Origin: Acidimicrobiia bacterium
GTDB lineage: Bacteria; Actinomycetota; Acidimicrobiia; Spongiisociales; SHLN01
Length of the DNA: 44,670 nucleotides
Reading direction: 5' to 3'
Assembly: GCA_041619515.1 (NCBI GenBank)
Contig: JBFKDW010000017.1
Span: 1 to 44,670, forward strand
A program made the position numbers and the translations under genes. Below, piece by piece: positions 9,410 to 44,670 of this stretch; positions within the stretch are counted from its first letter, which is position 1; the number at the start of each line of letters is the position of its first letter. Under the pieces are notes generated by a model. It saw nothing but the letters and a program-made list of their open reading frames with translations, searched no databases and was not told the DNA's origin.

Positions 9410-11611
9410 GTGGACTGGAATCAGGACGACGAGCTGCAGGCCATCTTTCGGGCCGAAATGGAGGACCGCGCGCCACATCTGGCCGCCGGCGCCCGGTCGA
9501 TGATCGACGGCACCCTCACCTCCGAGGCCACCGAGGAATGCGCCCGGCACGCCCACACGGTGAAGGGAACGGCGAAGGTCATGGGCTTCGAGGCGATCGG
9601 AGAGGCCGGCGGCCGGCTAGAGGTGGATTGGAAGGCCATCCAGGATCACACCCTCGAGCCGAGCGCCAGCCTCGGACGCCGGCTGCTGGCAGTGAGCGAA
9701 GCGCTGTTGCCCGCCATCGACGCCGATCCCGACCTGGGCACCCCTGAGCTGTCGGCGGCTCTCCGAGCCCTCATCCAGGGGGAGGATGCGCCGGAAGCCG
9801 GCCCCTCCAACGTGTCGGAGCTGACGCCTCCGCCGATCCGCATGGATTCCCCCGGCGAAGCGGAGGGTTTCGAGGTGCCGGCAGAAGGACGCGAGAGCCC
9901 GCTCGGCCCGGCCCTCATCGTGATCGACGGCTACAAGGGGGAGAGTGCTCCGGTCAATCCCAACGTCGGCAACTTGGGCGGACTGCTCGCCTCCAGTGAC
10001 TCCTTCGCCTCCGGTGAGACGACCGGGGTGGATACGGCCAAGCTGTACCGGCTCATCAATCGCGTTGCGGAGCTGCGATTGGATGCCGAGGCACTCGGAA
10101 CCACCATCGAGGCGCTGCGCGGTGCGGCCACTTCCGACCTTCGTGCCGTAGCCGCTCTGGCCAGCCGCTGGGAGGCGGCGGTTGCCGATATCAACGAGGC
10201 GGTGGCAGAGATTCAGCACCAGGCCGTCACGCTGGTGGCCGTCCCGCTCTCCACCGTGACGAGCACGGTTCCCGGCCTGGTGCGTTTCCTGGCCAAGAAG
10301 ACCGGCCGCGAAGTGCGGCTCGAGGTCGTCGACGACGACATCGAAGTGGACCTGCAGACCCTCGAAACGCTGGCCAATGCCTTCCGCAATCTCATCGTCA
10401 ACGCCGTCGAACACGGCATCGAGAACCCCGAAGATCGCATCGCCGCCGGCAAGCCCGCCACCGGCACACTCGGCATCCGCGCCAGCATCGAGGACGGCCG
10501 CCTCAGCCTGGCCGTGAGCGATGACGGGCGGGGCATCGACTGGGCCGCCCTGCGCCAGGCCGCAGTCGTGGCGGGAATGTCCGAAGCAGGAGCCGAGGTC
10601 TCCGAGGAGCAGCTGCGGGTTCTCCTCTTCGAGTCCGGCATCAGCACCTCCCCATCGCACAGCGAGCTCAGCGGCAGCGGGCAAGGATTCAACAACGTTG
10701 CCAGGATCGTGCGGGACATGCGCGGGTCGGTCCGGCTCGAAACCGAATCAGGAGTCGGAACCACCGTCACCCTCACGGTTCCGGCTTTTCAGAGCCTGCA
10801 GCGTGCGCTCATCATCGAGGCCGCCGGCCGGAGATGGGGCTTGGCCGAACCGGCGGTCCTCGACCGTTTCTCGATGCTGGACGCCGACGAGGTCACCGTC
10901 GGCGGCAACCGCGAGGTCGCCTGGGGCGACGGGTCACTTCCGATTGCGTCCCTGGCGGCTGCAGCCGGCCTGCCGGACACCGACACCCACCGCGATGTGG
11001 TGGTGCTCGCCACCCGGACAGGTCCGGCGGCACTCGCAGTGACCTCGGTGGTGGGTGTGCGCGAGGTCGCCACCAAGAGCCTGGGCCCACTGGTGTCCGG
11101 CACCCACCTCATCACCGGGGCCGCCCTGCTGGGAGGGGGAGAGCTGGCACTCATGCTCGATGCCGACGCGTTGGGAGAGGCCAGCAGAAAGACTCGCACC
11201 GGGCTGGCACCGGACGTGCTGCCACGGGTCCTGGTGGTCGACGACTCGCCTGGAGTGCGCCAGATCGTGGCGGGAGCTCTTGCCGCAGGGGGCTTTGATA
11301 CCGTGGTGGCCGGGACGGCTGAGGAGGCCGTCGACATCGTCGGCGCCGGGGGCGTCGACGCCATCGTGGTGGACTATTCGCTGCCGGGGTCAGACGGCAT
11401 CTCGCTCGTGGAGGATGTTCGGTCCCGCTCGACCGTGCTCCCCATCGTGATGATGTCTGCGGTGGCCGACCGCGCCGACCAGGACCGGGCCAAAGCTGCC
11501 GGTGTCGATGCCTATTTCGACAAGTCGGACTTCCGGGAAGGTGCGCTGGTATCAACCCTTCATTCCTTGCTGGAACGAGCCGATAAGGGACGAGAGGCAC
11601 AGGCACGATGA
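9410..11611 (+). CDS. CheA-like hybrid histidine kinase (Hpt-HATPase-CheW-REC)
   Basis: Hpt RHAHTVKG, N-box NLIVNAVEHGIE, DDGRGID, G.GTT.TL.VP, CheW-like GAALLGGGELALMLD, C-terminal receiver VLVVDDS...VVDYSLP...YFDK. Confidence 0.88.
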   Translation: MDWNQDDELQAIFRAEMEDRAPHLAAGARSMIDGTLTSEATEECARHAHTVKGTAKVMGFEAIGEAGGRLEVDWKAIQDHTLEPSASLGRRLLAVSEALLPAIDADPDLGTPELSAALRALIQGEDAPEAGPSNVSELTPPPIRMDSPGEAEGFEVPAEGRESPLGPALIVIDGYKGESAPVNPNVGNLGGLLASSDSFASGETTGVDTAKLYRLINRVAELRLDAEALGTTIEALRGAATSDLRAVAALASRWEAAVADINEAVAEIQHQAVTLVAVPLSTVTSTVPGLVRFLAKKTGREVRLEVVDDDIEVDLQTLETLANAFRNLIVNAVEHGIENPEDRIAAGKPATGTLGIRASIEDGRLSLAVSDDGRGIDWAALRQAAVVAGMSEAGAEVSEEQLRVLLFESGISTSPSHSELSGSGQGFNNVARIVRDMRGSVRLETESGVGTTVTLTVPAFQSLQRALIIEAAGRRWGLAEPAVLDRFSMLDADEVTVGGNREVAWGDGSLPIASLAAAAGLPDTDTHRDVVVLATRTGPAALAVTSVVGVREVATKSLGPLVSGTHLITGAALLGGGELALMLDADALGEASRKTRTGLAPDVLPRVLVVDDSPGVRQIVAGALAAGGFDTVVAGTAEEAVDIVGAGGVDAIVVDYSLPGSDGISLVEDVRSRSTVLPIVMMSAVADRADQDRAKAAGVDAYFDKSDFREGALVSTLHSLLERADKGREAQAR

Positions 11612-12612
11612 AAGTACTCATTGCAGACGACAGCCCGGTCCTGGTTACCGCGCTCCGAAAGTTGCTCGAACAGAGCGGCTATGAGGTTGTGGCCGCCATG
11701 GACGGCCTGGAAGCCGTGCAGTGCTTCTACCAGGAGAACCCCGATCTCGTCCTGCTCGACATCCAGATGCCGAAACTGCACGGCTACGTCGTGTGCCGGC
11801 TGCTCAAGGAGGATCCGGCCTCGCGCCATATCCCGGTGCTCATCCTCACCGGACGGGACTCCGCGGAGGACCGGTACTGGGGCAATCGCTCGGGTGCAGA
11901 CGGATATCTGACCAAAGAGTCGATGGGTGACGAGCTGCTGGACGCCATCCAGTCGGCCCTGGCCAGCCGGGCCCTCTCCGACATGGGCCGGGTCGAGCCG
12001 CTTCCGCAGTCCCTCGACGAAAGCGACGTGCTGAGCCGGGTGTGCGAGGTGCTGGACCGCAAGCTCTTCGAAGCCACCATCGTCAACGACATCGTGGGAG
12101 TGGGGGTCCGGGCAATGGACCTGGAAGCCACCGTCTCCGAAGCTCTCAACATCATCCGCCGCATCCTCGAATTCCAGGGCGGCGCCGTAGTGCTTCCCAA
12201 CGAACGGAGGCTCCTCGTCAGGTTCGACAAGACCATTTCACAGGGGGACTTCGACGAGTTCCGGTCGTTGAGCGCGCTCCGCTGCCGCCAGTTCACCACC
12301 GCCGACGTCACGATCGACGATCTCAACGTCTCCTTCGTTCACGGTCTCGCCAAGGAAGAGATGATCGACTCCGAGGGCGGCTTGGAGGACAAGGGCTGGC
12401 CGTCGTTTGCGGTGGCTCCGCTCTGGTCCCGCGGCGAAGTGGTCGGAGTGCTCGTGCTGGGCTCTCAGCGAGCAGAAGCTTTCTCCGATACGACCGATCG
12501 CACGCTTCGGACCATCGAGCCACACGTGGCGAGCGTGGTCGATTCGGCCCGCCATTACCAGAAGCTGCTGGAGCAAGAAGCCCGCAGCTCACTCAGCTCG
12601 CTCTTCGAATAG
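11608..12612 (+). CDS. Response regulator (REC) with C-terminal GAF-like domain
   Basis: VLIADDS, LLDIQMP, ILT, YLTK receiver. C-terminal APL..RGEVVGVLVLGS...AFS..L resembles GAF. Overlaps the kinase stop (ATGA). Confidence 0.8.
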   Translation: MKVLIADDSPVLVTALRKLLEQSGYEVVAAMDGLEAVQCFYQENPDLVLLDIQMPKLHGYVVCRLLKEDPASRHIPVLILTGRDSAEDRYWGNRSGADGYLTKESMGDELLDAIQSALASRALSDMGRVEPLPQSLDESDVLSRVCEVLDRKLFEATIVNDIVGVGVRAMDLEATVSEALNIIRRILEFQGGAVVLPNERRLLVRFDKTISQGDFDEFRSLSALRCRQFTTADVTIDDLNVSFVHGLAKEEMIDSEGGLEDKGWPSFAVAPLWSRGEVVGVLVLGSQRAEAFSDTTDRTLRTIEPHVASVVDSARHYQKLLEQEARSSLSSLFE

Positions 12613-12712
12613 CCCCAGCCGGCCGGCGTGGCGGCGTTGGCTCATCGCCGGCGAGGCCCCGCAAATGACACGGTTGAGATTCAGGTCCTCACAGGCCCGT
12701 ATACTCGCCCTC

Positions 12713-26976: not shown

Positions 26977-29904
26977 ATGGGTGACCGGAGGCGACCAGGC
27001 TTCATCACGTTCGTTGCATTGCTGGTGATGGCAGCGTTCATGCAGCCGGCGGTGGCAGAGGGCACGGGCGACGCGTCCATGCTGCAGACCGACTGTGCCA
27101 GCCCGCCGGCCATCATGGCGGTCGACGACCTGGCTGCGGGCATGACCGGCAAGGCGTATACCACCCTGTCGGGCCGCGAGATCTCTGAGTACGATGTCGA
27201 GATCCTCGGTGTGCTTCCCAATGCCGTCTACCCGCTCATCGACTTGATCCTCGTCAGAGCGTCCGGTCCGGCCCTGGAAGCGGTCGGCGGGATCGCCGGA
27301 GGCTTCTCCGGCTCGCCGGTCTACGTCGACGGCAAGCTGATCGGAGCCATCGCCTACGGGTTCTTCGGCAACGCCTTCCTCGCCGGGATCACACCGGCCG
27401 CCGCCATGATCGACATTGCCGGGTTCCCGCCCTCCGGGGCTCCACTGCTGAATGCCGGGGGCACCGAGGCGCTGGCGATGATCGAGTCTGCGGTCGGACC
27501 CGTGGGAGCGCCCCAGGCGCTCCCGATTCCCGTCGGTGTCGGGGGTTCGGCTCGCCTCATCGCGGAGCTGCAAGCCGAGGTCGACGCCCGCGGACTGCCG
27601 CTGCGGCTGTTCCCGGCGACGGCTGCGGGAAACACCGGAGGAGCCGACTCGTCCTCGCCGGGTGAGGTGCGCCCGGGTGAGCCTATGAGCGCGGTGCTGA
27701 GCGAAGGCGACTACTCGGCGTTTGCGACCGGCACCGCCACCTACTGCGACGGCAGCACGGTCATCGGCTTCGGCCATCCATTGCTCTGGACCGGTGAGGT
27801 CATGATGAGCATGAACGAGGCCGACGTGGTCACCGTGGTGGAAGACTCCACCGGCTTCGGCAACTTCAGGCTCGTGACTCTCGCCGAACCGGCCGGCCGC
27901 ATCGACTTCGACGGCAACGCCGGCGTCCGCGGCATATCCGGTCAAGCGGCTCCATCGGTGCCCATCACGAGCCGCGTCGAGTTTGCCGAGTACGGCGCCA
28001 CCCGCCAGGGCAGGACGGATGCCTACATGAGTGACGACCTGTCATTCAGCCTCGGCTTCACGTCCGCCATCCATCTGCTCACCAACCTCGACTTCGTGTC
28101 GGGCACCGGTTTCCGGCCCGGCAGCAGCGCAGTCGAGTGGACGGTGGAGGGAACCCGTCAGGACGGCTCGCCCTTCAGCGCCTCGTTCGACAACAAGTAC
28201 TGGAATCCGTTCAGCATCACCGACTCGAGCATCTTCGAGATGACCTCGTTCATCGACCTGTTGCTGTTCAACTCCTTCGAGGATGTCGACGTGACTGCAG
28301 TTGATATCGGCGACGCCCAGTTGTTCACAGATCGCCGCACGATCGACATCAAGAATGTCCAGGTGTCGACGCCGTCGAACCCGGAGCCTGTTTCGCAGTT
28401 CGGGTTCCTGGAAGCCCAGCCGGGTGACACCCTGACGGTGGAGGCGACACTGCAGCCGTTCGGGGGCGACGAATTCGTCGAGACGATCGAGCTGGAGATC
28501 CCGGGAGATTTCCCGGGAGGATTCGGATCACTCTCCGTCAGGGGCGGAAGCAGCGACTTCTTCTTCTTCGACCCCTTCTTCGAAGGGTTCCTACCCGGCG
28601 ACGTGTCCGATTTCGAAGGGCTCCTCGACTACCTCGAGAGCCGGGACCACAACTACGACCTGGTTGCAGAGCTCACTCTGTTCGAGGAGGGGTTCGCCGG
28701 GGAGCCGCCGCCGGGGGAGGGGGAGCCCGAGCCGCCGCCCGAGCCGTTCATCGATGCCAATGGCCCGATCGGCGACGACACCGTCAGCGTCAAGGAAACC
28801 GTCGAGTTCGACGCCGTCGTCACCGGCAACGCCTTCTTCGATGTCAACGTGTTTGCGGAGCCGCCCCCCAATGGGAACATCCTCCAGGCCGAGCTGTCCG
28901 GCATGAACGAGACCGGCCCAGGGGATCCCGACGGGTTTGGCTTCGCCGAGTTCTTCATCGAAGGAGACACCGTCCTGTTCGACATGACGCTCGAGAACGT
29001 AGACGAGCCCGTCATCGCCGCCCACATCCACGCCGGAGAAGCCGGCGTGGACGGCCCGGTGGTGCTGAATCTGGATTACGAGGCCAATGGTCTGAGCGGC
29101 GCGGTGTTCGCCGATCCGTTCTTCCTGGAAGAACTGCTCGCCTTCCCCGAGTCGTTCTACGTCAATGTGCACTCCGAGGCATATCCCGACGGGGCGGTCC
29201 GGGGTCAGCTGATGAGGCCTCCGCCCGACATCGCGGGGAGCTCGACGCTGGCGTACGTCTCGCCCTCGGGCCTGTGGCGGGTGGAGGGCTACGAGCCCTA
29301 CTACTTCGGGGTGGCCGACGATGTCCCGTTCCTGGGTGACTGGGATGGCGACGGCGTCAAGACGCCCGGGCTGTACCGGCCCGCAGACGGGTATGCCTAC
29401 ATCCGCAACTCGAACGACACCGGGGTGGCCGACGCTTCGTTCTTCATGGGCATGGAGGGCGATATCCCCATCGTCGGTGACTGGGACGGAGACGGTACCG
29501 ACACCTTCGGGGTGTACCGGCCGGCGGAAGGCAAGGTGTACCTGCGCAACAGCAACGACACCGGGACCGCCGACGTCGAGTACTCGTTCGGCATGCCGGG
29601 CGACGTTCCGTTCGCCGGCGATTTCGACGGAAACGGCATCACCGACGTCGGTCTCCATCGCACCACCACCGGTCTCGTATACATGCGGTTGACGCACACG
29701 ACCGGTCCGGCCGACCTCGAGTTCTTCTGGGGCGTGGGCGGAGACACCGTCCTGGCCGGAGACTGGAACGGCGACACGGTGGACACGGTCGGCTTGGTGC
29801 GTGCGTCGGAGGGAATGTTCTATCTCCGCAACGACAATTCCACCGGCATAGCCGACAACTTCTGGCCCCTCGAGGTCGAGGGCTCCCGGGTGATCGTCGG
29901 CTAG
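26977..29904 (+). CDS. Secreted SpoIVB/S55-like peptidase with CHRD domain and GDWDGDG repeats (paralog 1)
   Basis: Signal peptide; GGIAGGFSGSPVYVDGKLIGA (S55 serine motif); GT.TY....IGFGHP; CHRD (AHIHAG...GPVV...YVNVHS..YP.GAVRGQL); four C-terminal GD(W/F)(D/N)G repeats. Confidence 0.85.
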   Translation: MGDRRRPGFITFVALLVMAAFMQPAVAEGTGDASMLQTDCASPPAIMAVDDLAAGMTGKAYTTLSGREISEYDVEILGVLPNAVYPLIDLILVRASGPALEAVGGIAGGFSGSPVYVDGKLIGAIAYGFFGNAFLAGITPAAAMIDIAGFPPSGAPLLNAGGTEALAMIESAVGPVGAPQALPIPVGVGGSARLIAELQAEVDARGLPLRLFPATAAGNTGGADSSSPGEVRPGEPMSAVLSEGDYSAFATGTATYCDGSTVIGFGHPLLWTGEVMMSMNEADVVTVVEDSTGFGNFRLVTLAEPAGRIDFDGNAGVRGISGQAAPSVPITSRVEFAEYGATRQGRTDAYMSDDLSFSLGFTSAIHLLTNLDFVSGTGFRPGSSAVEWTVEGTRQDGSPFSASFDNKYWNPFSITDSSIFEMTSFIDLLLFNSFEDVDVTAVDIGDAQLFTDRRTIDIKNVQVSTPSNPEPVSQFGFLEAQPGDTLTVEATLQPFGGDEFVETIELEIPGDFPGGFGSLSVRGGSSDFFFFDPFFEGFLPGDVSDFEGLLDYLESRDHNYDLVAELTLFEEGFAGEPPPGEGEPEPPPEPFIDANGPIGDDTVSVKETVEFDAVVTGNAFFDVNVFAEPPPNGNILQAELSGMNETGPGDPDGFGFAEFFIEGDTVLFDMTLENVDEPVIAAHIHAGEAGVDGPVVLNLDYEANGLSGAVFADPFFLEELLAFPESFYVNVHSEAYPDGAVRGQLMRPPPDIAGSSTLAYVSPSGLWRVEGYEPYYFGVADDVPFLGDWDGDGVKTPGLYRPADGYAYIRNSNDTGVADASFFMGMEGDIPIVGDWDGDGTDTFGVYRPAEGKVYLRNSNDTGTADVEYSFGMPGDVPFAGDFDGNGITDVGLHRTTTGLVYMRLTHTTGPADLEFFWGVGGDTVLAGDWNGDTVDTVGLVRASEGMFYLRNDNSTGIADNFWPLEVEGSRVIVG

Positions 29905-32006: not shown

Positions 32007-32076
32007 CGGATCGAAAGGGCGAGGTTCGGCAAGCAGGCATGGCGGGATACCGCCGGCCCTAGTGAATAGGAGAATC

Positions 32077-34989
32077 ATGCGCAATCGGCGGTCCTTCGTG
32101 ACCATCGCAGTTTCAGTCTTGATACTGGCGGCGTTCATGCAGCCGGTCGGGGCGGAGGGGGGTGGCAGCGCCTCCATGCTGCAGACGGACTGTGCCAACC
32201 CGCCGGCCATCATGGCCGTGGAGGATGTCCATGCCGGCATGACCGGCAAGGCCTATACGACCCTATCGGGCCGCGATATCTCTGAGTTCGATATCGAAGT
32301 GCTCGGGGTACTGCCGGCGGCGGTCTATCCGCTGATCGACCTCATCATCATCGAGGTCTCCGGGCCCGCCGTCGAGGAAGTCGGTGGCCTCGCAGCGGGC
32401 TTTTCCGGCTCACCCGTCTACATCGACGGCAAGCTCATCGGCGCTTTCGCCTACGGCTTCTGGGGCAACTCCTTCGTTGGTGCTGTGACGCCGGCGGAGT
32501 TGATGCTGAAGCTGGGAACCTTCCCGGCGACCGCGGCCCCGCAACTGAGCAACGCCTCCCGGCAAGCTCTCGAACTCATCGAAGCCGCCGTGGGCCCGCT
32601 GGGTGTGCCCCGGGCATTGCCGACTCCGGTCGGCGTGACCGGAAGCGCTGAATGGGTCGAGAAGCTCCAGGCTCGCGCCGCCGACATGGGGCTGCCCATG
32701 ATCGTCTTCCCGGCAACCGGCTCCGGCAGCGGCGGGTCCACCTCCGGATCGCCGGGCGTCATCTTGCCTGGTGAGTCCCTCAGCGCCGTGCTGAGTGAGG
32801 GCGACAACGCCGCCTACGCCACGGGAACCGCTACCTACTGTGACGGGACGACCGTCATCGGCTTTGGCCATCCGCTCCTGTGGACCGGTGAGGTCAGCAT
32901 GAGCATGAATGAGGCCGACGTCATCACCGTCATCGAGGATTCCACCGGCTGGGGCAACTACAAGCTGTTCAGCCTGGGCGAGCCGGCCGGCCGGCTCGAC
33001 TTCGACGGCAACGTCGGGGTGCGGGGAATAGCCGGCGAGATGGCAGCGTCGGTGCCGATCACGAGCTCGGTCGAGTTCGCCCAATACGGGGCTACCCGTG
33101 ACGGCCGCACCGTCGCCTACATGGCCGACAGTCTCTTCTTCAGCCTTGGGTGGGTGAGCGCCGGGCATCTGCTCACCAACCTCGACTTCGTGTCGGGGAC
33201 CGGATTCCGGCCCGGCAGCAGCACCGTCGAGTGGACGGTGGAAGGAACGCGCCAGGACGGTTCGTCGTTTCGCGCCTCGTTCGACAATCTGTACTGGGAC
33301 TCGTTCAGCATCACCGACAACAGCATCTACGAGCTGGCGTCGTTCATCGACGTCCTGGTGTTCAACCCGTTCGAGGATGTGAAGATCACCTCGGTCGACA
33401 TCGGAAAGGCTGAGCTGTTCACCGATCGGCGCACCGTCGACATCAAGAAGGTGCATGCCTGGACGACGTCGAATAGCGAGCCGGTCCAGGACTTCGGATT
33501 CCTGCAGGCGATGCCGGGCGACCTCGTCACCGTCGAGGTGACCCTGCGGGCGTTCGGCCGGTCCGAGGACGTGGTGAAGACCCTCGAGTTTGAGGTTCCG
33601 GCCGACTTCGAAGGGGGGTACGGCTCCCTCTGGATTCACGGAGGCAGCAGCGACTACCTCTACTTCGATCCGTGGTACGACGATTACCTTCCCGGTGGCG
33701 CCGCCGACTTCGACGAGCTGCTCGCGTACGTAGAGGGCAGGGATCGTAACTCCGACCTCGTGGCCGAGCTCACCTTGTATCCGTCCTATGGCGTCGGGGG
33801 TGAGCCCGGCAATGGGCTCCCCGAGCCGCCGGACGGCTTCATTCCGACCAACGGCGGTGGCGTCGATACGTCCGTGCGCATCAAGGATGTCGTGGAGTTG
33901 GATGCCGTCGTCCGCGGTGACCGGTACTTCGACGTCGAAGTGCTCCCCGAGGTGCCCCCGGTCATGGGAACGCTGTATGCCGACCTGTCCGGCGCCAACG
34001 AGCCCGGCGGAGGTGACTCCGACGGAACCGGATCTGCCGTGGTGAGCTTCGAGGGGGACACCGTCACCTTCGACATCACCCTCCTGAACGTGGATGAGCC
34101 GATCACCGGAGCTCACATCCATGCCGGAGCTGCCGGCGAGGATGGCCCGGTGGTCGTCGATCTCGAGTTCGACGTGAACGGTTTGAGCGGGGTCGTCTAT
34201 GCCGACCCGTATCTGCTCGGGGAGATCCTGGCGTCGCCCGAGTTCTACTACGTGAACGTGCATTCGGAGGCCTATCCGGCCGGCGCAGTGCGTGGGCAGC
34301 TCTCCTATGAGGTCCCGCCCGAAGGGTCGACCCTCGCATACGTGAGCGCCGGCGGCCTGTGGCACGTCAGCGGGTACGAGCCGTTCTACTTTGGAGTGCC
34401 GGGAGACATCCCCTTCCTTGGTGACTGGGACGGCGACGGCGTCAAGACCCCCGGCTTGTACCGTGCGTCCGACGGATTCGCCTACCTGCGCAACACGAAC
34501 GACACCGGCATCGCCGACACGTCGTTCTACATGGGAGCGCCCGGCGACATTCCGATCGTCGGCGACTGGGACGGAGACGGCATCGACACCTTCGGCATCT
34601 ACCGGCCTGCGGAAGGCAAGGCGTATCTGCGCAACAGCAACGGCACCGGACCCACCGATGTCGAGTTCTACTTCGGTGTTCCCGGTGACATTCCGTTCAC
34701 GGGTGACTTCGATGGCAACGGCATCACCGACCTGGGCCTGCGCCGTGATGCGACGGGGTACGTGTACCTCCGGTTGAGCCATACCACCGGCATCGCCGAC
34801 CTCGCCTTCTACTGGGGCGTGTCCGGCGACAAGGTGATGGCAGGCGACTGGGATGGCGACGGAATCGACACCGTCGGCCTCGTCAGGCCGTCCACCGGGA
34901 TGTTCTACTTCCGGAACTCCAACGCCACCGGTATCGCCGACGGCGAGTGGCCGGTGGCCACCAGCCGCGGGTGGACCATCGTCAAGTAG
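32077..34989 (+). CDS. Secreted SpoIVB/S55-like peptidase with CHRD domain and GDWDGDG repeats (paralog 2)
   Basis: Collinear with 26977-29904 over its full length. SD aggaga before ATG 32077; GLAAGFSGSPVY, IGFGHP, CHRD and four C-terminal repeats. Confidence 0.87.
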   Translation: MRNRRSFVTIAVSVLILAAFMQPVGAEGGGSASMLQTDCANPPAIMAVEDVHAGMTGKAYTTLSGRDISEFDIEVLGVLPAAVYPLIDLIIIEVSGPAVEEVGGLAAGFSGSPVYIDGKLIGAFAYGFWGNSFVGAVTPAELMLKLGTFPATAAPQLSNASRQALELIEAAVGPLGVPRALPTPVGVTGSAEWVEKLQARAADMGLPMIVFPATGSGSGGSTSGSPGVILPGESLSAVLSEGDNAAYATGTATYCDGTTVIGFGHPLLWTGEVSMSMNEADVITVIEDSTGWGNYKLFSLGEPAGRLDFDGNVGVRGIAGEMAASVPITSSVEFAQYGATRDGRTVAYMADSLFFSLGWVSAGHLLTNLDFVSGTGFRPGSSTVEWTVEGTRQDGSSFRASFDNLYWDSFSITDNSIYELASFIDVLVFNPFEDVKITSVDIGKAELFTDRRTVDIKKVHAWTTSNSEPVQDFGFLQAMPGDLVTVEVTLRAFGRSEDVVKTLEFEVPADFEGGYGSLWIHGGSSDYLYFDPWYDDYLPGGAADFDELLAYVEGRDRNSDLVAELTLYPSYGVGGEPGNGLPEPPDGFIPTNGGGVDTSVRIKDVVELDAVVRGDRYFDVEVLPEVPPVMGTLYADLSGANEPGGGDSDGTGSAVVSFEGDTVTFDITLLNVDEPITGAHIHAGAAGEDGPVVVDLEFDVNGLSGVVYADPYLLGEILASPEFYYVNVHSEAYPAGAVRGQLSYEVPPEGSTLAYVSAGGLWHVSGYEPFYFGVPGDIPFLGDWDGDGVKTPGLYRASDGFAYLRNTNDTGIADTSFYMGAPGDIPIVGDWDGDGIDTFGIYRPAEGKAYLRNSNGTGPTDVEFYFGVPGDIPFTGDFDGNGITDLGLRRDATGYVYLRLSHTTGIADLAFYWGVSGDKVMAGDWDGDGIDTVGLVRPSTGMFYFRNSNATGIADGEWPVATSRGWTIVK

Positions 34990-36291: not shown

Positions 36292-37128
36292 ATGAACCGC
36301 TCAATCATCAGATCAATAGCCGCCGCGGCGGTGATGGCACTCATCACCGCCGCATGCGGCTCCGAGGCCATTGCCAAGCCGGCGACGCCAACGTTGCTCG
36401 TGCTGGTCGACGGCCGCGGCCCCGGCCTCTATCACCCGTTCGATCTGCTCCAACCGCATGTGCCGCGGCTGGCGCTGTACAGCGATGGACGGCTGGTCAT
36501 GGTCGATGAGACCGACGAGGTCCACGCCTCGTACACGATCGCCCGGGTGCGGGAGGGGGCGCTCGCCGATGTGCTGACTGCGGCGACCGCCGCCGGACTG
36601 TCCGGTCCCGATCGCGACCTCGGCTTTGCCGGCGTGGCAGGCGCAACGACTGCGGTGGTCACGGTGTACTACCCCGCTGGTCCCCACACCACCACGGCCG
36701 ACGGGTACTGGGATGGGCTCGACGACGGGTCCCTGTCCGAAGCGGACAGAGATGCCCGCGCCGCCCTCGGTGACTTCCTCGATCGGCTCATCCGGCCGGG
36801 GGATTGGTGGCTGGAGGGTGAGCAGGCCGAGCCATATGTCCCCGGTGACTGGGCGGCCGTTTGGTCGGAAGTCGACGAGGTCGACGAGCTTCCTTTCGAG
36901 CCGACCGTTCGGCCATGGATCCTGGAGGCGGCACTGGGTGGATGGGGGCAACCGGTGAGCGAAGCACGCCCGGCCCGCTGCGCGGTGCTCGACGACGTCA
37001 CCGCTGCCCGCATCCTCGCCCAGCTGCGGCCCGAGACCGTGTGGGAGAGCGAGGGGGAAACCTATTACGTGTACCTCCGGCCGCTGCTGCCCCACGAGCT
37101 GACGGACTGTGCAACTGCCTCGCGGTAG
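36292..37128 (+). CDS. Putative lipoprotein
   Basis: MNRSIIRSIAAAAVMALITAAC lipobox; P.LALYSDGRLV; C-terminal RPLLP.E...C. Confidence 0.72.
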   Translation: MNRSIIRSIAAAAVMALITAACGSEAIAKPATPTLLVLVDGRGPGLYHPFDLLQPHVPRLALYSDGRLVMVDETDEVHASYTIARVREGALADVLTAATAAGLSGPDRDLGFAGVAGATTAVVTVYYPAGPHTTTADGYWDGLDDGSLSEADRDARAALGDFLDRLIRPGDWWLEGEQAEPYVPGDWAAVWSEVDEVDELPFEPTVRPWILEAALGGWGQPVSEARPARCAVLDDVTAARILAQLRPETVWESEGETYYVYLRPLLPHELTDCATASR

Positions 37129-37155
37129 CGGGCGCTTCGCCCTAATCTGCGGTCC

Positions 37156-38871
37156 CTAGGGAAGCTTGAAGGCGGCCGGGAGGTGCTCGTCGACCATGAG
37201 GGCGGCACTGTGACGCCCTAGCTCGGTGAGATCGTCCATGTTGGCCGGCCGGTCCATTTCGCCCAGCTCCCTGAGTCGCTTGGCGGAGATCTCCCGGCCG
37301 AGCTGCTCCTTGATCCAGCCGGGGGTGAGCTCGACGTTGTAGCGGCGGTAGGTGATGACCGGCTGCCCACCCAGCAGGTCCCCGGCCAGATCACCGATGT
37401 CGCCGTCGATCGCCCGGGCCGTGGGACCGTCCGACAGCCACTGCATGACCGTCTCGATGAGACTGCTGCAGTCGTTCATGATTGAGGTGAGCGCCACCAG
37501 CGCGTGCTTGCCGGCCATCCGCGACGGCATCGAGGACGGGTCGGCCGTCCCGGTGCCGCACGAGACGATCAGCAGCCGGTGCTGACCGGTCGGCCAGCCG
37601 ATGCCGAAATTCCCGAGCGTCACCAGCTTGAGTGCTTCGAAAGCAGGGTTGTTTGCCGTGCTGACCCCACCATCGACGAAGTTCCCCGGGATCCCGGGGT
37701 TGACTTCGATCAGCTCCGGGCCGAAGTAGTGGGGAGCGGCGGTGCTGGCTCGCACCACCTTCCGCAGCTTGTAGTCGGCGTTTGCCCGGCTGGTCGAGCC
37801 CGGTCGCTGGTGAAAATAGGTGGCGCGTGGATTGTTCGAAACCGGCCATTGGCTCCCTGTGTCGAGCCGCTTGGTCACTACCAGCAGACCGGTCAGCAAG
37901 TCGGGGCTGCCCATGGTCATGTCGTCGAAAAGCTCCTCGAGGGCCTTTTCGAGAGCAGTCGCGTCGAACTTGGCCCGGAACACGCCCCATCTCCGCCACG
38001 ACCGCCGGAACACGCTGTCGGCCAGCCGACGGTACTTCTCCTCGATCTCCGAGGCGTACATGCCGAGGGCCAGGCCGGCCGCAATGATGGAGCCGGTGGA
38101 GGTGCCGGCAATGAGGTCGAAGTAGTCGCTCAGCCGCAGCCCGGGCTTCCTGTGCTGATCCTGCAGGATCTTCTCGAGCCGCTTGAGGTACTGGAGGGTG
38201 AGGATTCCGCGCACGCCGCCACCGTCCAGGCTGAGGATTCGTTTGGCTCCCCCGCTACGTGCGAGGTGGACGTCGCGAGGGAACGGCTGGATCGTGGTCG
38301 GGTTGATGATCGCGGAGTGGTCGGGCTGGAGCATGCCGGCGGCCGCGGCTGCCAGGTCGGAAGTGCCCCCCGGCCCGTCGCCGCTCGGAAGTTCGTCCCA
38401 CACCAGCAGGATGAACAGCTTGCCGGCACCGCCGGCTTCGGCGCGGGCGGCTTCGAGCAGCCACCGGTTGTTGCGGGCGTAGGGGCTTTCGCCGGCGGGG
38501 AGGGCGCCCAGCTCGTCGGTCTGGAGTCGGACCTCGGCATGGGCGATCAGCCGGTGGAAGCGGCGCTCCCAATCCGACCCGGGCAGCCGAACCGACTCCT
38601 CCACGAAATCGTCGGTGTTCGACGGCAGCAACACCTGTACCCGGGCGCCGCGCCCTGAGCAGATCTCCGCAAAAATGAGGTCGGCGCCGCGCGCCCCCCC
38701 ACACAGGGCGGTGTCACCTGCCCCGACCCCCCACTCGTCAAGCTGGGCCGCCATGCGCGCCCGCACCGCCTCTTCCTTGACCGGGGGAAAGCGGGCCGCC
38801 GCTCGGTCGGGGGCGTCGACCATATGCCCGCTGCACAGAAACACGCGCCCTGTCGGGTGCGGTCCGGCCAT
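37156..38871 (-). CDS. Patatin-like phospholipase with N-terminal SLOG-like (YpsA/DprA-fold) domain
   Basis: Patatin motifs ILSLDGGGVRG, FDLIAGTSTG (GxSxG), VRASTAAP.YF and FVDGG..NNP. The N-terminal ~195 aa has SGH, GGARGAD...E, VLLP, Y..NN.WLL and LVWD...GPGGT. Start ATG 38871 follows ggaaagggg; ATG 38931 is also possible. Confidence 0.82.
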   Translation of the reverse strand: MAGPHPTGRVFLCSGHMVDAPDRAAARFPPVKEEAVRARMAAQLDEWGVGAGDTALCGGARGADLIFAEICSGRGARVQVLLPSNTDDFVEESVRLPGSDWERRFHRLIAHAEVRLQTDELGALPAGESPYARNNRWLLEAARAEAGGAGKLFILLVWDELPSGDGPGGTSDLAAAAAGMLQPDHSAIINPTTIQPFPRDVHLARSGGAKRILSLDGGGVRGILTLQYLKRLEKILQDQHRKPGLRLSDYFDLIAGTSTGSIIAAGLALGMYASEIEEKYRRLADSVFRRSWRRWGVFRAKFDATALEKALEELFDDMTMGSPDLLTGLLVVTKRLDTGSQWPVSNNPRATYFHQRPGSTSRANADYKLRKVVRASTAAPHYFGPELIEVNPGIPGNFVDGGVSTANNPAFEALKLVTLGNFGIGWPTGQHRLLIVSCGTGTADPSSMPSRMAGKHALVALTSIMNDCSSLIETVMQWLSDGPTARAIDGDIGDLAGDLLGGQPVITYRRYNVELTPGWIKEQLGREISAKRLRELGEMDRPANMDDLTELGRHSAALMVDEHLPAAFKLP

Positions 38872-39061
38872 TGTGCCCCTTTCCTGTCCCTCCCGCCGTG
38901 TCGGGCATGGTACTGCCGGCGCGGGCTCCACCGGGGGGCGCTCGATCCGAGGGCGGCAGCGCCGAGCTGGGCATAGATGTCAGGCCGTGGTGTAGGGTCG
39001 GAAGCAGGGCTGCACGGCAAGATCCGTGGCGGCGGAAGGGTTCTCAAGGGAAGGGGTCACC

Positions 39062-41329
39062 ATGGGACTCGGTCATTTCACTCCGCCGGCGCTTCCCGGC
39101 CAGCCGGCCGAGTTGGACCTCGTGGTTTCGTTCCGCTACAACGCCACCGACGTTCAGAAGAACGATTGGAGGAACTTGCTGGAGTGGGCCTCCAACATGC
39201 TGTTCGAGGCGACCGAGGGCCAGGTGCGGCTCGGCAAGATCGTCTACGGCAACAACCTGGCCGCTGAGAAAGCAGCCGACATCTGGCTGCACGACACGTC
39301 GATCACGGCGAGCGCCCACTCGGGCGGCGTCGGGCTCGGAGCCTGGGAGGTTCACATCGAGCTCGGCCTCGACACCCTCGGCCAACCCGGTGCTCCACCC
39401 CAGGCGGGCAAGCCGGGGCAGGCGGTGCACGAGCTCGGCCATCATGCCCTCGGCCTGGGAGAAGAGTACGACCCGCACTGCATGCCCGACCTGGCCACCG
39501 CCGAAGCGGCTGGTGCGTGCATCATGCAGTACGGGTCGAGGAGCATCGAGCGGAACCTGGACGGGTCGGCCTCGTGGTCTCCGTTCGCCCCGCCGATCAC
39601 CGAGTTCTGCCACGGCAACCATGAGACCGCCGGGGTGACGCACCAGAGCCTCATCAACAACGGCCAGTCCTGTGCGGAGACCGTCGTCTACAGCAATGTC
39701 GCCGCCATGACTCCCCGCTACCCCGGCGCGGCGCCATTCGCCGATCCACCCGTCCCAGCCTCTACGGCGGCGGTCCCGGCGAAGCACTCGATCGGATGGC
39801 TCGAGCTCGACCGCCAAGCGCGGTTTGCGCTGGTACTGGACGTCTCGGCCAGCATGCAGGCCCGGAGGGCAATCGACGGCGTGAAGTACGGAGCCGACTT
39901 CTGGGTCGACCTCGAGGTTCTGCTCGGCAGCCAGCTCGCGATTGTCTCCTACGCAACCACGGCCGCTCCGGTGTTCGGCTTGGCCCCGGTCACCCAGGTA
40001 GCCGCCACGGCGATACACACCTCCATCGGCAACCTTGCCGCCACCGGGTTCTCCACGAATATCCGAGCCGGGCTGCAGGCCGGTGAGGCGCAGGTGACGC
40101 CGGCCGGTGCCCCGGCCGCCGACCAGATCGTCATTCTGTTCTCCGATGGGCGGCACAACGAGGGTCCCTGGCTCACCGACACCCAGCTGGCCAATCTCGA
40201 CGCCCCGGTCTACACGCTCGGGTTCGGAAACGCCGACCAGGCACTGCTGCAAAACGTCGCCACTCAAACCATGGGCGAATTCGAGATGATCGACGATCCC
40301 GGGGACCAGCCTGATGCCCATCTGGAGATCGTCACGGTGTTGTGTGCGATTGCCGCCAAAGCTCACAGCGGTCTGGTTTCGTTTCGGCGCGCGGTCCTGC
40401 CGGCGCCAATCCGACTCTGGCAGCTGCTGCGGCGCACGCTGCTGCGGAGAGGGGCTCGGGCCGGACGTGACCCGTCGCTACCTCGCTACAGCGGCCCCGA
40501 CCTGGCCGCGGTCGGTGCCATCAACCTGCGGTCCTGGGCGTCGCCGAGCGGCTTCGACCTCCCATCCCCGATCGAGGAGGGGTCGGTGCGGGCGACGTTC
40601 GTCATGACGCATCGGGCCGAGACGGCCGTCGACCTGTATCTGTTTCGGCCCAATGGTCAGATCGTCGGCCCGGGCGATCCCGACGTCGACATTGTCGCCC
40701 CGCCGGGAATGCCCTACGCCTTCTATGTGATCACCCTTCCTGCGCCTGGAGTGTGGCGGATGCGAGCGGTGCGCGGCCAGCCCGACGGATCCCTCCATGT
40801 CACGATGTTTGCGTTCAGCGAGAACCCGCACATCACCGTCGGCCTCACCGGCACCTCACGGGTGTATGCGGTGGACGAGCCGGTGAGGCTCAACGCCCAG
40901 ATATCAAACCGCTTCCAACTGACCGGTGTTTCGGCCGGCCTCACCCGGCCGCGTCGGGCCGACCGATCCAGTCCGCTGTGCCGATGGCTGAGCCGGTTCG
41001 CCGTCGTCAGGTGGCTGCTGCGGATCTGGCGGTGGCTACAGCGCCTGCTCGGGATCGGCCGGCGGCCACCCCAGCCCTTCACGGAGGAGCGGGTGGGCAA
41101 GGGATGGTATGGGCTCACGCTGCCGGGGTTCCCCAGCCCCGGGTCGTACGATTTCATCGCCGAGTTTGCCAGTGATGGAAGCGCCACCCAAGCGCTCGAC
41201 GAGGGCTTGGCGGATCAGGCCGGCATCCCGCTGCCGGTTCCGTACCAGCCGCCGGAATTCCGCAGGCTGAAACGTTTTCAGATTCATGTGGGTGACCCCG
41301 GACTTCCGATCGGCGAGGACACGGACTAG
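39062..41329 (+). CDS. CLCA-like zinc metallopeptidase with vWA and beta-sandwich domains
   Basis: ASNMLFEATEG, HELGH...LGEEYD (HExxH...E), CIMQY...ITEFC..NH...Q......SC.E; vWA LVLDVSASM (DxSxS), STNI..GL, ILFSDG..N, VYTLGFG; DLYL.RP.G...P.PG.W. Confidence 0.8.
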   Translation: MGLGHFTPPALPGQPAELDLVVSFRYNATDVQKNDWRNLLEWASNMLFEATEGQVRLGKIVYGNNLAAEKAADIWLHDTSITASAHSGGVGLGAWEVHIELGLDTLGQPGAPPQAGKPGQAVHELGHHALGLGEEYDPHCMPDLATAEAAGACIMQYGSRSIERNLDGSASWSPFAPPITEFCHGNHETAGVTHQSLINNGQSCAETVVYSNVAAMTPRYPGAAPFADPPVPASTAAVPAKHSIGWLELDRQARFALVLDVSASMQARRAIDGVKYGADFWVDLEVLLGSQLAIVSYATTAAPVFGLAPVTQVAATAIHTSIGNLAATGFSTNIRAGLQAGEAQVTPAGAPAADQIVILFSDGRHNEGPWLTDTQLANLDAPVYTLGFGNADQALLQNVATQTMGEFEMIDDPGDQPDAHLEIVTVLCAIAAKAHSGLVSFRRAVLPAPIRLWQLLRRTLLRRGARAGRDPSLPRYSGPDLAAVGAINLRSWASPSGFDLPSPIEEGSVRATFVMTHRAETAVDLYLFRPNGQIVGPGDPDVDIVAPPGMPYAFYVITLPAPGVWRMRAVRGQPDGSLHVTMFAFSENPHITVGLTGTSRVYAVDEPVRLNAQISNRFQLTGVSAGLTRPRRADRSSPLCRWLSRFAVVRWLLRIWRWLQRLLGIGRRPPQPFTEERVGKGWYGLTLPGFPSPGSYDFIAEFASDGSATQALDEGLADQAGIPLPVPYQPPEFRRLKRFQIHVGDPGLPIGEDTD

Positions 41330-41334
41330 CGCAG

Positions 41335-42447
41335 TCACGATCCGGAGTAACGGATCGTGAAGTCACTGTTGAGATCTCTCGTGAACTCGAGGTTCCGCGT
41401 CGGTATCCGGCTGCACGACCCTGCCGGAGAGCCGTCATCCGCAAAGGTGGCGATGACGAAGGCCAGGACGCCCGGCTCTCCCGGCGCCGGGCTTCCGCCC
41501 ACGGCGCTGAACCCTCCGGGGAATTCGTCCTGGCAGTCGATCCGCAGCGGCTTTGCCAGCTGCACGTTGGCGGTGGTGAGGTTGACTGTGGGCGTGAAGG
41601 CTTTTCCATCGATTCTGATACCCGCCGAGGTGTCGAACACCATCGTCAGCGAATGGGGGGCTCCGTCGTAGGCGAGGCTGGTTGGAATCGGAGGGTTGAA
41701 GTAGGTCCCCGGGGCCGTGCCCTGACGGGATCCCATCCCGGTGGCGGTGAAGAAGAATTCGCCTATGGCCGCAACGTCGAATCCATCGCCTCCGCCGACC
41801 AAACAGGTGGTCGTCCCGTTCGGCGGAATGGGCCCAGCCACGGTGCAGACGTCTGTGCCGAGCGGACCGGGGTCGGGCGCGGTCCCGGCAACCTCGACGT
41901 CGACGAGCGTGCCGAGCGAGTCGAGGTTGTCGATCGTGAATTGAATCCAGAACTTCCCCGGCTTCAGCGTGGGGACTTCTGACCGATGGCCCGCCAGCTG
42001 CCACGGACCGTTCGGGCTGTTTGCAACCCGAGCGAGGATCCGGAATTCGGGGTCGACTCCCGACGCGAACGCGAAAACACCCTCTGCAATCACGGCGGGA
42101 AGCGGCACGGTGGTAGTGGTGGTGGTTGCCGGACGGGTCGTGGTCGTGGTGGTGGCGGTGGTGGTGCTGGTTGTCGTTGTGCCCGCAGGCGGGGCCGTGG
42201 TGGGAGGAGGGTCGTCGCCGTCTCCGTCACCGTTGCCGTCACTGGTCCCATCGCCGGTGATTGTGGGAGGTGCCGGGCCGCCGGTGGTGGTCGGATCGCC
42301 GTCGAGGGTGGGCGGTGGCACCGTTCCGGTAGCCGATGTCGGAGCAGGGCGAGAGCTCGAGGTCGTCTCACCGGTCGAGTCGCCACAGGCAGTGCCGATG
42401 AGGACGAGGACCATAGCCAGGGCCGCGAGCCGGATGGTTGTGCTCAT
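41335..42447 (-). CDS. Putative lipoprotein with Thr/Pro-rich linker
   Basis: MSTTIRLAALAMVLVLIGTAC lipobox, long T/P/GD low-complexity stalk, then a beta-rich region with four Cys. 55 bp separate it from the upstream TIR gene. Confidence 0.75.
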   Translation of the reverse strand: MSTTIRLAALAMVLVLIGTACGDSTGETTSSSRPAPTSATGTVPPPTLDGDPTTTGGPAPPTITGDGTSDGNGDGDGDDPPPTTAPPAGTTTTSTTTATTTTTTRPATTTTTTVPLPAVIAEGVFAFASGVDPEFRILARVANSPNGPWQLAGHRSEVPTLKPGKFWIQFTIDNLDSLGTLVDVEVAGTAPDPGPLGTDVCTVAGPIPPNGTTTCLVGGGDGFDVAAIGEFFFTATGMGSRQGTAPGTYFNPPIPTSLAYDGAPHSLTMVFDTSAGIRIDGKAFTPTVNLTTANVQLAKPLRIDCQDEFPGGFSAVGGSPAPGEPGVLAFVIATFADDGSPAGSCSRIPTRNLEFTRDLNSDFTIRYSGS

Positions 42448-42502
42448 GGCATTACCCCTTGTGCGCGTCCGCCCTTTCTGAGTCTACGCAAGCTCCCAGA
42501 AG

Positions 42503-44344
42503 CTAGGAGCTCTCGCACCGAGCGCGGGGGAGAGGGTCCTGGTCGTCGGCCGCTCTCTCTTCTGCGCTGCGGGCGTACGCGGCGTCCGCCGCGTCCGGAT
42601 CGGCGAGAACACACTCGTAAATGAACCCGATGGCCGCATGAAAACGGGCCCGCTTGCCGGCTTCCAGGCTGACCTCGATGGCGATCCGGTATTCGTCGAC
42701 CGCCGCCTGCGGATCACCGTTCGCGAAGTGATATGCCGCCAGGCTCTGGTGGGCGTCCGCTACGAGGTTGCGCAGTCGATCGTTGCTGCTGTTCTCGGCA
42801 ATCACGCTCTCGAACTGCACCCGCGCCTCCTCCAGGAGGTTCTCTCCGTATTGGTTCAGACAGAGATAGATGCGACCGATTTCCAGCTCGGCCCGAGCCG
42901 GAAGGAAGGAGAGGGGCGGTGCGTCCATCCCGGTGACGTTCCGGAATTGGTCGGCGGCCTGGCCGAGAGCGCCCGGGTCGGCCGGTTCAGTGCCGGGCCC
43001 GCAAGCAGGACCCTTGTTTTCCTGGAACTGCACCTCGGCGAGGCCGAAGTGGCTGCGAGCGTAGGTGGGGTCGATGGCGAGGGCGCGTGAGTAATAGTCC
43101 CGGGCTTCGGCCAAATAGGTCTGGGCGTCGCTGGGCCGGTCGGCGGCCAGGTGTCCGGTAGCGTTGCCGAGCAGGTGGAAGACGACTTCCTTTCCCGTTT
43201 CGTTGCCCTGCCAGGCTGCTTCGGCATCGAGGAAGTGTTCCCGGGCGATCTCGTAGTCGCTGAGTGCGTAGTAGCTGAGGCCAACCACGAGCTCGGCGAC
43301 GGCCTCGGCCTGGGACTCGAGGACCGCAGAAACCTCTCTTGTGACCGCTACCGGGTCGGTCGTCGGCAATTCGATCAGCCCGAATGAATAGGCGCCTGCC
43401 AGCTCTTCGGCATTGCGCAGGTTCCGGTCGGATAGGTACAGCTCGGCAGAGAACACGCTCACGCCCGACCCTGCGTCGAGGTTGCCGAAGAGCACCACGT
43501 CTGCGTTGATCTTCTCGGCGAGGTCTCCGGCCTCACGCGTCCTGGCCTCCAGCGTTGAACCGTCGATGCGTCCGATGGTCGCAGGATCGGCAACGGCGAG
43601 GTTCTCGAAATCACCTGCTTGTTCGAACTCGAACAGCTTCTGACTGATACTTCGATGCGCGGCGTCGGCGATCCCGCGGGCGGTCGCGTCGTCGGCCTGA
43701 TTCGTGGTGCCGAACTGGGCTACGGCAACATTGAAATCACCGAGCAACGGACTGAGACCACCGCCGATCAGGGTGCCGACAACGAGTACGGCCGCCGCCA
43801 CCAGCCCCCCGGTAACCGCCAGCGACGGCAGTGGATGTGATTTCAACCATCTCGCCATACGCGGCCGCCCCCCGATCTCATCAATCAGGTGGTCGACGTC
43901 GTCGTCGAACCGGGCATTTCGTATCTCTGCGGTCTGGAGAAATGCCATGGGGCGGATGGATTCGGGAAGCTCGCCGGGGGAAGGCATTGGTGCCCCGTCG
44001 ACGAGGACCGGCATGACGACGTGATCCGGCTGGGCCATGGCCATCTCGACTTCGAGGCGCACGTAGTCCCCTGGGTCGTCGAGACGCCGTTTGCCGTCGG
44101 CGTCGGTGAGCGAAGTCCAGTCGGGTCCCATGACGACCAGCGTGACATCGCTGGCATCGATGGCTTCTTGGACCCGCTGCACAAAATCGACGCCGGTGCG
44201 TATCGTGTCGACGTCTCGGAACACGCGGCCTTTTCCGTAGTGGTCGGTCAGCCGGTCATAGATCCTTCCTGCGGAGCCCTGAGCGTCGTCCCGGCGGTAC
44301 CCGATGAAGATGCCCGCAATCGAACCTCCTCGCCTTCCCCACAT
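42503..44344 (-). CDS. TIR domain - transmembrane helix - TolB_N/CsgG-like - TPR protein
   Basis: IFIGYRRDD...GRIYDRL...VFRDVD.I..G.DF...I..S.V.LV.MG..W...DYVRLEV..A...V.PVL (TIR_2 type); one hydrophobic helix; FNVAVAQF...NADVVL.G; TPR-like helices (A..YY.RAL.IDP.YA.SHFGLA). Confidence 0.85.
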   Translation of the reverse strand: MWGRRGGSIAGIFIGYRRDDAQGSAGRIYDRLTDHYGKGRVFRDVDTIRTGVDFVQRVQEAIDASDVTLVVMGPDWTSLTDADGKRRLDDPGDYVRLEVEMAMAQPDHVVMPVLVDGAPMPSPGELPESIRPMAFLQTAEIRNARFDDDVDHLIDEIGGRPRMARWLKSHPLPSLAVTGGLVAAAVLVVGTLIGGGLSPLLGDFNVAVAQFGTTNQADDATARGIADAAHRSISQKLFEFEQAGDFENLAVADPATIGRIDGSTLEARTREAGDLAEKINADVVLFGNLDAGSGVSVFSAELYLSDRNLRNAEELAGAYSFGLIELPTTDPVAVTREVSAVLESQAEAVAELVVGLSYYALSDYEIAREHFLDAEAAWQGNETGKEVVFHLLGNATGHLAADRPSDAQTYLAEARDYYSRALAIDPTYARSHFGLAEVQFQENKGPACGPGTEPADPGALGQAADQFRNVTGMDAPPLSFLPARAELEIGRIYLCLNQYGENLLEEARVQFESVIAENSSNDRLRNLVADAHQSLAAYHFANGDPQAAVDEYRIAIEVSLEAGKRARFHAAIGFIYECVLADPDAADAAYARSAEERAADDQDPLPRARCESS

Positions 44345-44424
44345 CGCCTTTCTCGTTGTTTGGGTCGGTTCCGACAGTACACCAGGGGTGTTTGGGGGCT
44401 ATCTCAATCACGCTCCGTCGGCAT

Positions 44425-44670
44425 TCAATCCGCGGTCGCCTCGCGGTACGACCTGACGTAGTGTTCACGCAGCACGAAGCCGTGGAACGCACGGTGGAGT
44501 CGATGGCCGCCCGGCACGGAGGCCCCCAGTGTCAGCAGGGCGGCAAGGGTGAACGCGGCCCCGCCGTCCGGACGGAGCCGTCCCGGGCGAACCGCGCTCA
44601 CGCGCTCGATCAACGTGCTGGTCAACTCGGCGGGTGGGTGATCGGACAGGGCGGCTATGGCGATGGTGTG
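44425..44670 (-). CDS. 3' end of a gene truncated by the window edge (unknown product)
   Basis: Frame is open from the window end to TGA at 44425 (…HRAFHGFVLREHYVRSYREATAD). Confidence 0.45.
   Translation of the reverse strand, partial: HTIAIAALSDHPPAELTSTLIERVSAVRPGRLRPDGGAAFTLAALLTLGASVPGGHRLHRAFHGFVLREHYVRSYREATAD

Follow-up and report, generated by a model that had tools for sequence, protein, structure and literature searches.

The gene at 37156..38871 (minus strand) of the window, that is, of the whole 44,670-nucleotide stretch of Acidimicrobiia DNA analysed here, encodes a YpsA-like SLOG domain joined to a catalytically intact patatin in a single chain of 571 amino acids. This fusion probably serves as the effector of a TPR-S/Thoeris-like signalling system that answers an NAD-derived signal. 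Its reading frame runs from an ATG at 38871 to a stop at 37156 and follows a stretch that resembles a ribosome-binding site (AGGAAAGGGG). The full-length AlphaFold model (pLDDT 91.4, pTM 0.92) ends the SLOG domain at about residue 194 and begins the first patatin helix at residue 198; since the pTM refers to the whole chain and only about 4 residues separate the domains, the model implies that the two are packed in a fixed arrangement. The protein has no predicted membrane helix.

The fusion is real, because independent contigs, from two other studies, span the domain junction without an indel. Homologues that are 60-65% identical are fused as well, and an assembly artefact was rejected on both grounds. 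The GC3 of the gene (0.86) is similar to that of the housekeeping genes in the window. A promoter scan of 36900-44670 returned 0 sites, and terminator-like elements numbered 3 against 3.9 expected.

The SLOG domain

Residues 8-194 (38290..38850, minus strand) had been read in the earlier note as a Rossmannoid domain of the SLOG superfamily on the strength of its motifs. All of these are in place (S14-G15-H16, GGARGAD at G58-D64, V157-W158-D159 and G168-G169-T170), and the assignment is borne out by an AlphaFold model of the domain (pLDDT 94.7), fold searches and alignment. With this model, YpsA of B. subtilis (2NX2) ranked first in Foldseek (E 1.2e-5) and in a wide search (Z 15.8, rmsd 3.6, 164 aligned residues), where DprA came next (Z 11.6), an order that was unchanged in another fold search. 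The top ten matches of the wide search are YpsA, DprA, ShosA, TM1055, LOG, the Moco carrier protein (MCP), TRPM2 and TT1887, and YpsA-like clusters are among the neighbours in a structure atlas. Of the two references that had been proposed for this comparison, YpsA proved the best match, whereas ThsA is absent among the matches listed in the three fold searches. The model accordingly places the domain in the SLOG superfamily, with a five-stranded Rossmannoid sheet. With YpsA as the closest structure and the GxD/E signature that has been ascribed to the YpsA clade (PMC6459960), it belongs to that clade, and specifically, as had been missed before, to the YpsA-clade SLOGs of the DRHyd/TPR-S conflict systems.

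The signature lies in GGARGAD (38680..38700, minus strand), where G62 and D64 occur in 86 of 86 aligned rows. Eleven residues are conserved at 97-100% in the family (G15, H16, D19, R23, R27, A60, G62, D64, W101, N135 and W158), among them the near-invariant polar residues H16, D19, R23, R27 and N135; D64 is invariant too. Despite the shared signature, the fusion SLOG is only 13-17% identical to YpsA, from which it also differs by an insert specific to its family (GHMxDxPxRxxxRFP, following strand 1) and by having a lipase as its output. At the level of family profiles, the domain itself has no significant match in Pfam, NCBIfam or PADLOC (YAcAr E 0.68), and the fusion has none to PF06908, the YpsA family proper, at E<=1. 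Within an 87-row alignment, 16 relatives match YAcAr and 5 match DprA at E<=0.1.

By motif alignment, the loop GDGPGGTSDL (38353..38382, minus strand) is the counterpart of the LOG motif PGGxGTxxE, in which the backbone and the Thr bind phosphate and the last Glu is catalytic (PMC4979012). Leu173 sits where LOG has this Glu, as judged from the motif alignment with no superposition, and the position of LOG Glu122 is held in the family by F (33), M (27), L (16), V (3) and Y (1) of 85 rows, i.e. by F, M or L in 76, with no acidic residue among the top residues listed. Judged by its sequence, the domain appears to lack the catalytic Glu that marks LOG phosphoribohydrolases. Because the last position of the motif is Leu here, and F, M or L in the family, the alignment points to a binding domain more than to an enzyme of the LOG type, although the near-invariance of H16, D19, R23, R27 and N135 qualifies this.

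The patatin domain and its comparison with CapV

Residues 198-571 (37159..38280, minus strand) constitute a patatin-like phospholipase by motifs (GGGxR, GxSxG, DGG) and by fold. PF01734 covers residues 213-414 (E 1.7e-32) and, as the earlier note held, the catalytic apparatus is intact: on the minus strand, the GGGVRG oxyanion motif lies at 38206..38223 (D216-GGGVRG222), GTSTG with the nucleophile Ser258 at 38092..38106 (G256-TSTG260), and DGG with the catalytic Asp400 at 37666..37674 (D400-G-G402). The nearest structures are CapV, patatin and CapE, CapV/CapE being the nearest solved patatins (Foldseek E 5e-20), and the best family matches of the fusion in NCBIfam and PADLOC are defence lipases.

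In common with the CBASS phospholipases CapV and CapE, the fusion keeps the Ser-Asp dyad and GGGxR, but it carries an added SLOG domain and scores below the cut-off of the NCBIfam family CBASS_lipase (126 versus 200 bits). The residues of AbCapV that contact cGAMP (F147, K149, D159 and E207; PMC12480259) correspond to V344, N346, N364 and L416 in a gapped region of the alignment, with 0 of the 4 identical, and by both family score and contacts the fusion falls outside CapV. No SMODS cyclase (PF18144) was found in the 95.65% complete genome (the control was found in 3 of 14 genomes); on this absence and the low lipase score, CBASS was rejected as the system type. No CD-NTase is present among the window genes scanned.

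The patatin also has a family-specific stretch (T338-x-S340-x-W342...P348...N364; 37780..37860, minus strand) that is kept in 94-100% of 71 patatins, whether these are fused, SLOG-linked or SLOG-free, with W342 and N364 in all 71 and S340 and P348 in nearly all. It aligns with the AbCapV cGAMP contacts F147, K149 and D159.

Genomic company of the two families

The SLOG domain matches 2,628 representatives at E<=0.001, and its family is found mostly as the C-terminal end of DRHyd-like/TPR-S proteins. Among the best 120 matches listed, 111 carry TPR-S (PF20308), 7 carry a patatin (including the window itself) and 2 are without a family; the window SLOG shares 47-55% identity with the domain at the C-terminus of TPR-S proteins. 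The latter are about 690 residues long and consist of a head with an N.NV.YELG.RH motif, TPR-S and then the SLOG. A Pfam scan of the head gave no DRHyd family; we take it to be of the DRHyd class from its YELG motif and a weak match to DNPH1/Rcl (E 0.04). The SLOG profile also matches the SLOG of one TPR-S-SLOG-adenylyl/guanylyl cyclase protein at 98.7%, and a conflict-system branch with cyclase architectures is placed in the YpsA family (YpsA paper). The same SLOG was seen on TIR, sigma-54 activator, SLATT, Ser/Thr kinase and ParA-like proteins (P0173, P0184, P0210, P0219, P0239, P0255).

A GTDB scan by two SLOG patterns yielded 41 loci, 26 of which hold both the SLOG and the patatin family of the fusion, the patatin mostly as the next gene; two are fused. 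Within 5 kb of the 27 SLOG-anchored loci that have at least 3 kb on each side, a patatin occurs in 18, a DRHyd-like gene in 19, TPR-S in 20, SLATT in 7 and TIR in 6, and a DRHyd-like or TIR enzyme is present in 20 (the local profiles were built from the same loci that were counted; in many of these, TPR-S, SLATT and TIR were also recognised by Pfam). Anchored on the patatin instead, 16 loci with full flanks, drawn from 20 fetched matches and one same-genus locus, show within 5 kb a SLOG in 9, a TIR in 7 and a TIR or DRHyd-like gene in 12. Among 80 metagenome loci, a set ranked by full-length match to the fusion, 12 have full flanks, with a SLOG near in 10 and a TIR or DRHyd-like gene in 11. 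The SLOG family is linked genomically to TIR, DRHyd-like/TPR-S and SLATT genes. In Roseobacter loci (L030, L034, L038 and L039, about 8500-12700), SLATT, SLOG, patatin and DRHyd-like/TPR-S are separate genes, the stand-alone SLOG lying on the opposite strand between SLATT and the patatin plus DRHyd-like/TPR-S genes.

In three full-flank GTDB loci, two of them SLOG and patatin pairs, the surrounding 5 kb are free of TIR, DRHyd-like, TPR-S and SLATT genes. Such loci would suit a very improbable alternative, in which the SLOG is itself a signal-making N-glycosidase that acts on NAD, ADPR or AMP through a non-LOG active site, in a self-contained synthase-effector. This role could also draw on the invariant polar residues H16, D19, R23, R27, D64 and N135, on the lack of a DRHyd-like partner in the genome of the window and in that of another fusion (G130), and on the description of conflict-system YpsA-clade SLOGs as signal-generating or sensing (YpsA paper). 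It is opposed by the DRHyd-like or TIR enzyme that most SLOG loci already possess, by the missing LOG-type Glu and by the lack of an invader-sensing part in the fusion.

The patatin family, for its part, is also found without the SLOG. In each of 5 genomes in which the patatin adjoins a TIR or DRHyd-like gene, the SLOG profile gave no match (control 5 of 5; completeness is given only for G224, at 97%, and the patatin of G553 is in two pieces), and since the profile is empty in all five, the patatin does not always need a SLOG. In three genomes picked after the neighbour had been seen (G543, G459 and G625), the only TIR_2 gene lies 0.1, 0.1 and 4 kb, respectively, from a related patatin. In G543 and G459, where that TIR_2 gene adjoins the patatin and the SLOG family was not found, the two genes are a candidate minimal TIR-patatin system. 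Divergent TIR and patatin gene pairs were observed at L167 (9170-11430), L168 (9432-11792) and L182 (453-2754).

Because SLOG-free patatins adjoin TIR or DRHyd-like genes and the conserved patch aligns with the CapV ligand site, the lipase may have an allosteric site of its own and may read the signal itself. Both observations would count against the SLOG as the activating sensor. They give some weight to a rather unlikely alternative, namely that the patatin reads the TIR or DRHyd signal at the equivalent of the CapV pocket (S340, W342, P348 and N364, aligned with CapV F147-D159), while the SLOG acts as a buffer, eraser or inhibitor that sets a threshold and prevents accidental self-lysis. 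YpsA-like SLOGs have indeed been proposed to degrade ADPR-type signals (PMC9503650), but the catalytic Glu of LOG is missing here. Furthermore, the conserved patch might have a structural role or form an oligomer surface, the absence of a SLOG from draft genomes is no proof, and a SLOG accompanies most members of the family.

The neighbourhood of the fusion gene

The candidate source of a signal is the gene at 42503..44344 (minus strand), which encodes a TIR domain (TIR_2, E 5.7e-12), a membrane helix (a hydrophobic stretch at about residues 171-203) and TPRs. It lies 3.6 kb upstream on the same strand as the fusion, with two genes between, one of them on the other strand. Among the loci compared, the best matches of its TIR domain are TIRs beside SLOG-patatin operons (40-45%). 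TIRs of this type are common. The chance of a TIR so near the fusion is about 1%, a post hoc figure. The genome holds a second TIR_2 gene, a TIR-WD40 gene on contig C1, and only one SLOG of the fusion's family. We infer that the upstream TIR gene is linked to the fusion as its signal source. In its order of parts, the TIR protein has a Toll-like layout.

Against a role in a signalling system, the genome holds no DRHyd-like partner (0 matches to the profile in the 95.65% complete genome, against 2 of 2 in control genomes), the TIR gene is three genes away, and the flanking genes (lipoprotein-like genes, a CLCA-like vWA/protease gene and housekeeping genes) are not a defence island. No DRHyd-like/TPR-S part was found in the window genes scanned, and TPR-S elsewhere amounts to one unlinked match on contig C65. 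This match (L044 6266-9475, minus strand) is a 1,069-residue protein in which TPR-S is combined with a divergent patatin and a tail of hydrophobic residues at the C-terminus, i.e. a second TPR-S-linked lipase of the genome, unlinked to the fusion.

Several other genes of the window were observed. Divergent from the fusion, the gene at 39062-41329 (plus strand) encodes 755 residues with a HELGH zincin-like head and a vWA domain; its first atlas matches are animal CLCA proteins (0.96), followed by a small bacterial cluster, and it is present in a single copy in the genome and has no homologue near related loci. The genes at 26977-29904 and 32074-34989 (plus strand) are paralogues, 66% identical, with a SpoIVB S55 peptidase and CHRD domains, and their C-terminal repeat block is found again on over 20 contigs of this assembly.

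The isolated position of the fusion, alone between lipoprotein-like genes and the CLCA-like protease gene, would be consistent with an orphaned or domesticated remnant, regulated by a metabolite in ordinary lipid turnover or stress signalling and devoid of an anti-phage role here. A composition like that of the host, the lack of any DRHyd-like or SMODS gene in the 95.65% complete genome, and the action of YpsA itself in stress and division (YpsA literature) point the same way. This reading is nonetheless improbable, given the very patchy distribution of the fusion (0 full-length matches in 40 relatives, 1 in 400 genomes of the class), the defence lipases that are its best family matches, and a genome of the same genus (G005) that keeps a related patatin amid three TIRs, a SLATT gene and a TPR-S-SLOG-cyclase gene. 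In G005, 3 of 4 TIRs lie on the contig that bears this patatin (C5; L134 and L140), where the patatin directly follows one of the three TIR genes in an island that also contains a vWA/PP2C/kinase-like trio and an FHA-ABC gene.

Rarity and repeated origin of the fusion

The fusion is rare, and it arose or split several times. Besides the window, 13 full-length fusions were found, 11 of them (with 2 fragments) among 269 collected proteins and the others in L075 and G130/L164, and none besides that of G041 occurs in 301 genomes of the class of G041, a tally that includes one unpublished genome. In a careful patatin tree of 33 rows, the fused label requires 4 changes, and none of the bootstrap trees gets by with a single change. 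In a larger patatin tree of 71 rows it requires 7, at least 5 of them forced, and in a SLOG tree of 81 rows, from which near-duplicates and short fragments were left out, again 7, at least 3 of them forced; all of these counts take gains and losses together. A single clade of fused SLOGs is rejected (p-AU 0.034). The SLOG and patatin trees group the fused clade with different sets of loci (weak support), which argues against a tightly co-evolved pair, and with it against the SLOG as sensor of its lipase.

The two-gene forms are ordinary operons. Among 31 co-oriented pairs, 12 share a reading frame, each of the three stop codons is represented and the patatins begin at starts of their own; read-through of the stop codon was rejected on these grounds.

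Five fusions have a DNA context. A TIR gene lies 3.6 kb away in the window and about 6 kb away in L164, the fusion of L005 precedes a small half-TIR/half-SLOG gene (E 4e-4), that of L075 follows a TPR-S gene, and that of L003, on a 4.4-kb contig, shows no TIR or TPR-S neighbour. The small gene of L005 (11734-12273, plus strand) encodes 179 residues, in which part of a TIR is joined to the latter half of a SLOG, directly after the fused SLOG-patatin.

Proposed mechanism

The mechanism builds on the fold, the catalytic motifs, the repeated fusion and the gene linkage described above, and every later step of it is inferred. A TIR protein, probably the TIR-TM-TPR protein encoded 3.6 kb upstream or else the TIR-WD40 protein of contig C1, would sense the invader and produce an ADP-ribose derivative. 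This would be bound by the SLOG, which retains the phosphate loop and GxD and lacks the catalytic Glu of LOG; the tightly packed patatin would then open its lipid pocket, as CapV does, and hydrolyse phospholipid of the cell's own membrane, so that the cell is killed or arrested.

The model for such a switch is ThsA, whose SLOG binds 3'cADPR and switches on the fused enzyme (10.64898/2025.12.03.692087; PMC7272460). In addition, the N-terminal glycosidase of BcTpr, a glycosidase-TPR protein, makes a cADPR isomer in phage defence (10.1101/2023.05.26.542521), and phospholipases are among 29 predicted types of Thoeris effector (10.64898/2025.12.03.692087). The ligand gating of the lipase proposed in the earlier note is plausible. 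That the SLOG is the activating sensor of its lipase and that its ligand is an NAD-derived alarm molecule has slightly less than an even chance. The narrower proposal, in which the fusion is a self-contained lipase that answers, in the manner of ThsA, an ADP-ribose-type messenger through its SLOG, with the membrane-anchored TIR protein as a receptor whose TPRs lie outside, is somewhat unlikely.

Relation to known systems and implications

DRHyd and TPR-S conflict systems were reportedly described by Burroughs and Aravind in 2020 (J Bacteriol). The SLOG and the patatin of the fusion are of those systems' own families; in contrast to them, the fusion is a single chain, with no DRHyd-like/TPR-S part in the protein or the locus. 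The BcTir/Tpr preprint lists again the YspA-Tpr and Patatin-Tpr assemblies of the 2020 paper and states that the domains of TPR assemblies fuse and rearrange (10.1101/2023.05.26.542521). Published predictions already contain the parts list of SLOG, patatin and TPR-S, and the fusion represents one variant of such a predicted system. The earlier note had set the pairing apart from ThsA and CapV; the fusion is indeed neither, but because SLOG plus patatin is common as a two-gene arrangement (26 of the 41 GTDB loci), it counts as a variant and not as a novel pairing.

Type I Thoeris ThsA (SIR2-SLOG) resembles the fusion in joining a SLOG to a toxic enzyme, with a candidate TIR upstream here, and is the closest model for how the fusion would work. 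The SLOG of ThsA belongs to the STALD family and follows an NADase (PMC7272460), whereas that of the fusion is YpsA-like, N-terminal and attached to a lipase, not SIR2, the TIR is membrane-anchored and not adjacent, and PADLOC gives no ThsA match to the fusion. Thoeris types VII/VIII and the predicted phospholipase types share the same neighbours (TIR-linked SLATT, hydrolase-TPR (ThsI) and phospholipase effectors), although the main text of that survey contains neither 'patatin' nor a SLOG-lipase (10.64898/2025.12.03.692087). A SLOG-patatin fusion is likewise not described in the accessible portions of PMC9503650, PMC13069673 and PMC8195603. No report of a direct fusion was found in the literature search, and Burroughs 2015, Burroughs and Aravind 2020 or the Thoeris Fig. 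1C/Table S1 may list it. Nor did that search bring up a ligand for any SLOG of the YpsA clade or a patatin that responds to an NAD-derived messenger; those bacterial defence patatins that have been characterised in the literature found, as far as the accessible texts go, answer cyclic dinucleotides.

The fusion represents the predicted DRHyd/TPR-S-SLOG-patatin system reduced to one soluble 571-residue chain with a simple lipase read-out, for which the natural SLOG-free and two-gene relatives are controls. In this one-chain form, the ligand of the SLOG and its role, as sensor, eraser or synthase, are directly testable. If the narrower proposal with the membrane-anchored TIR receptor is true, a ligand would be known for the first time for a YpsA-clade SLOG, a patatin would for the first time be seen under an NAD-derived signal, and the whole would amount to a pathway from a Toll-like receptor to a phospholipase in a bacterium.
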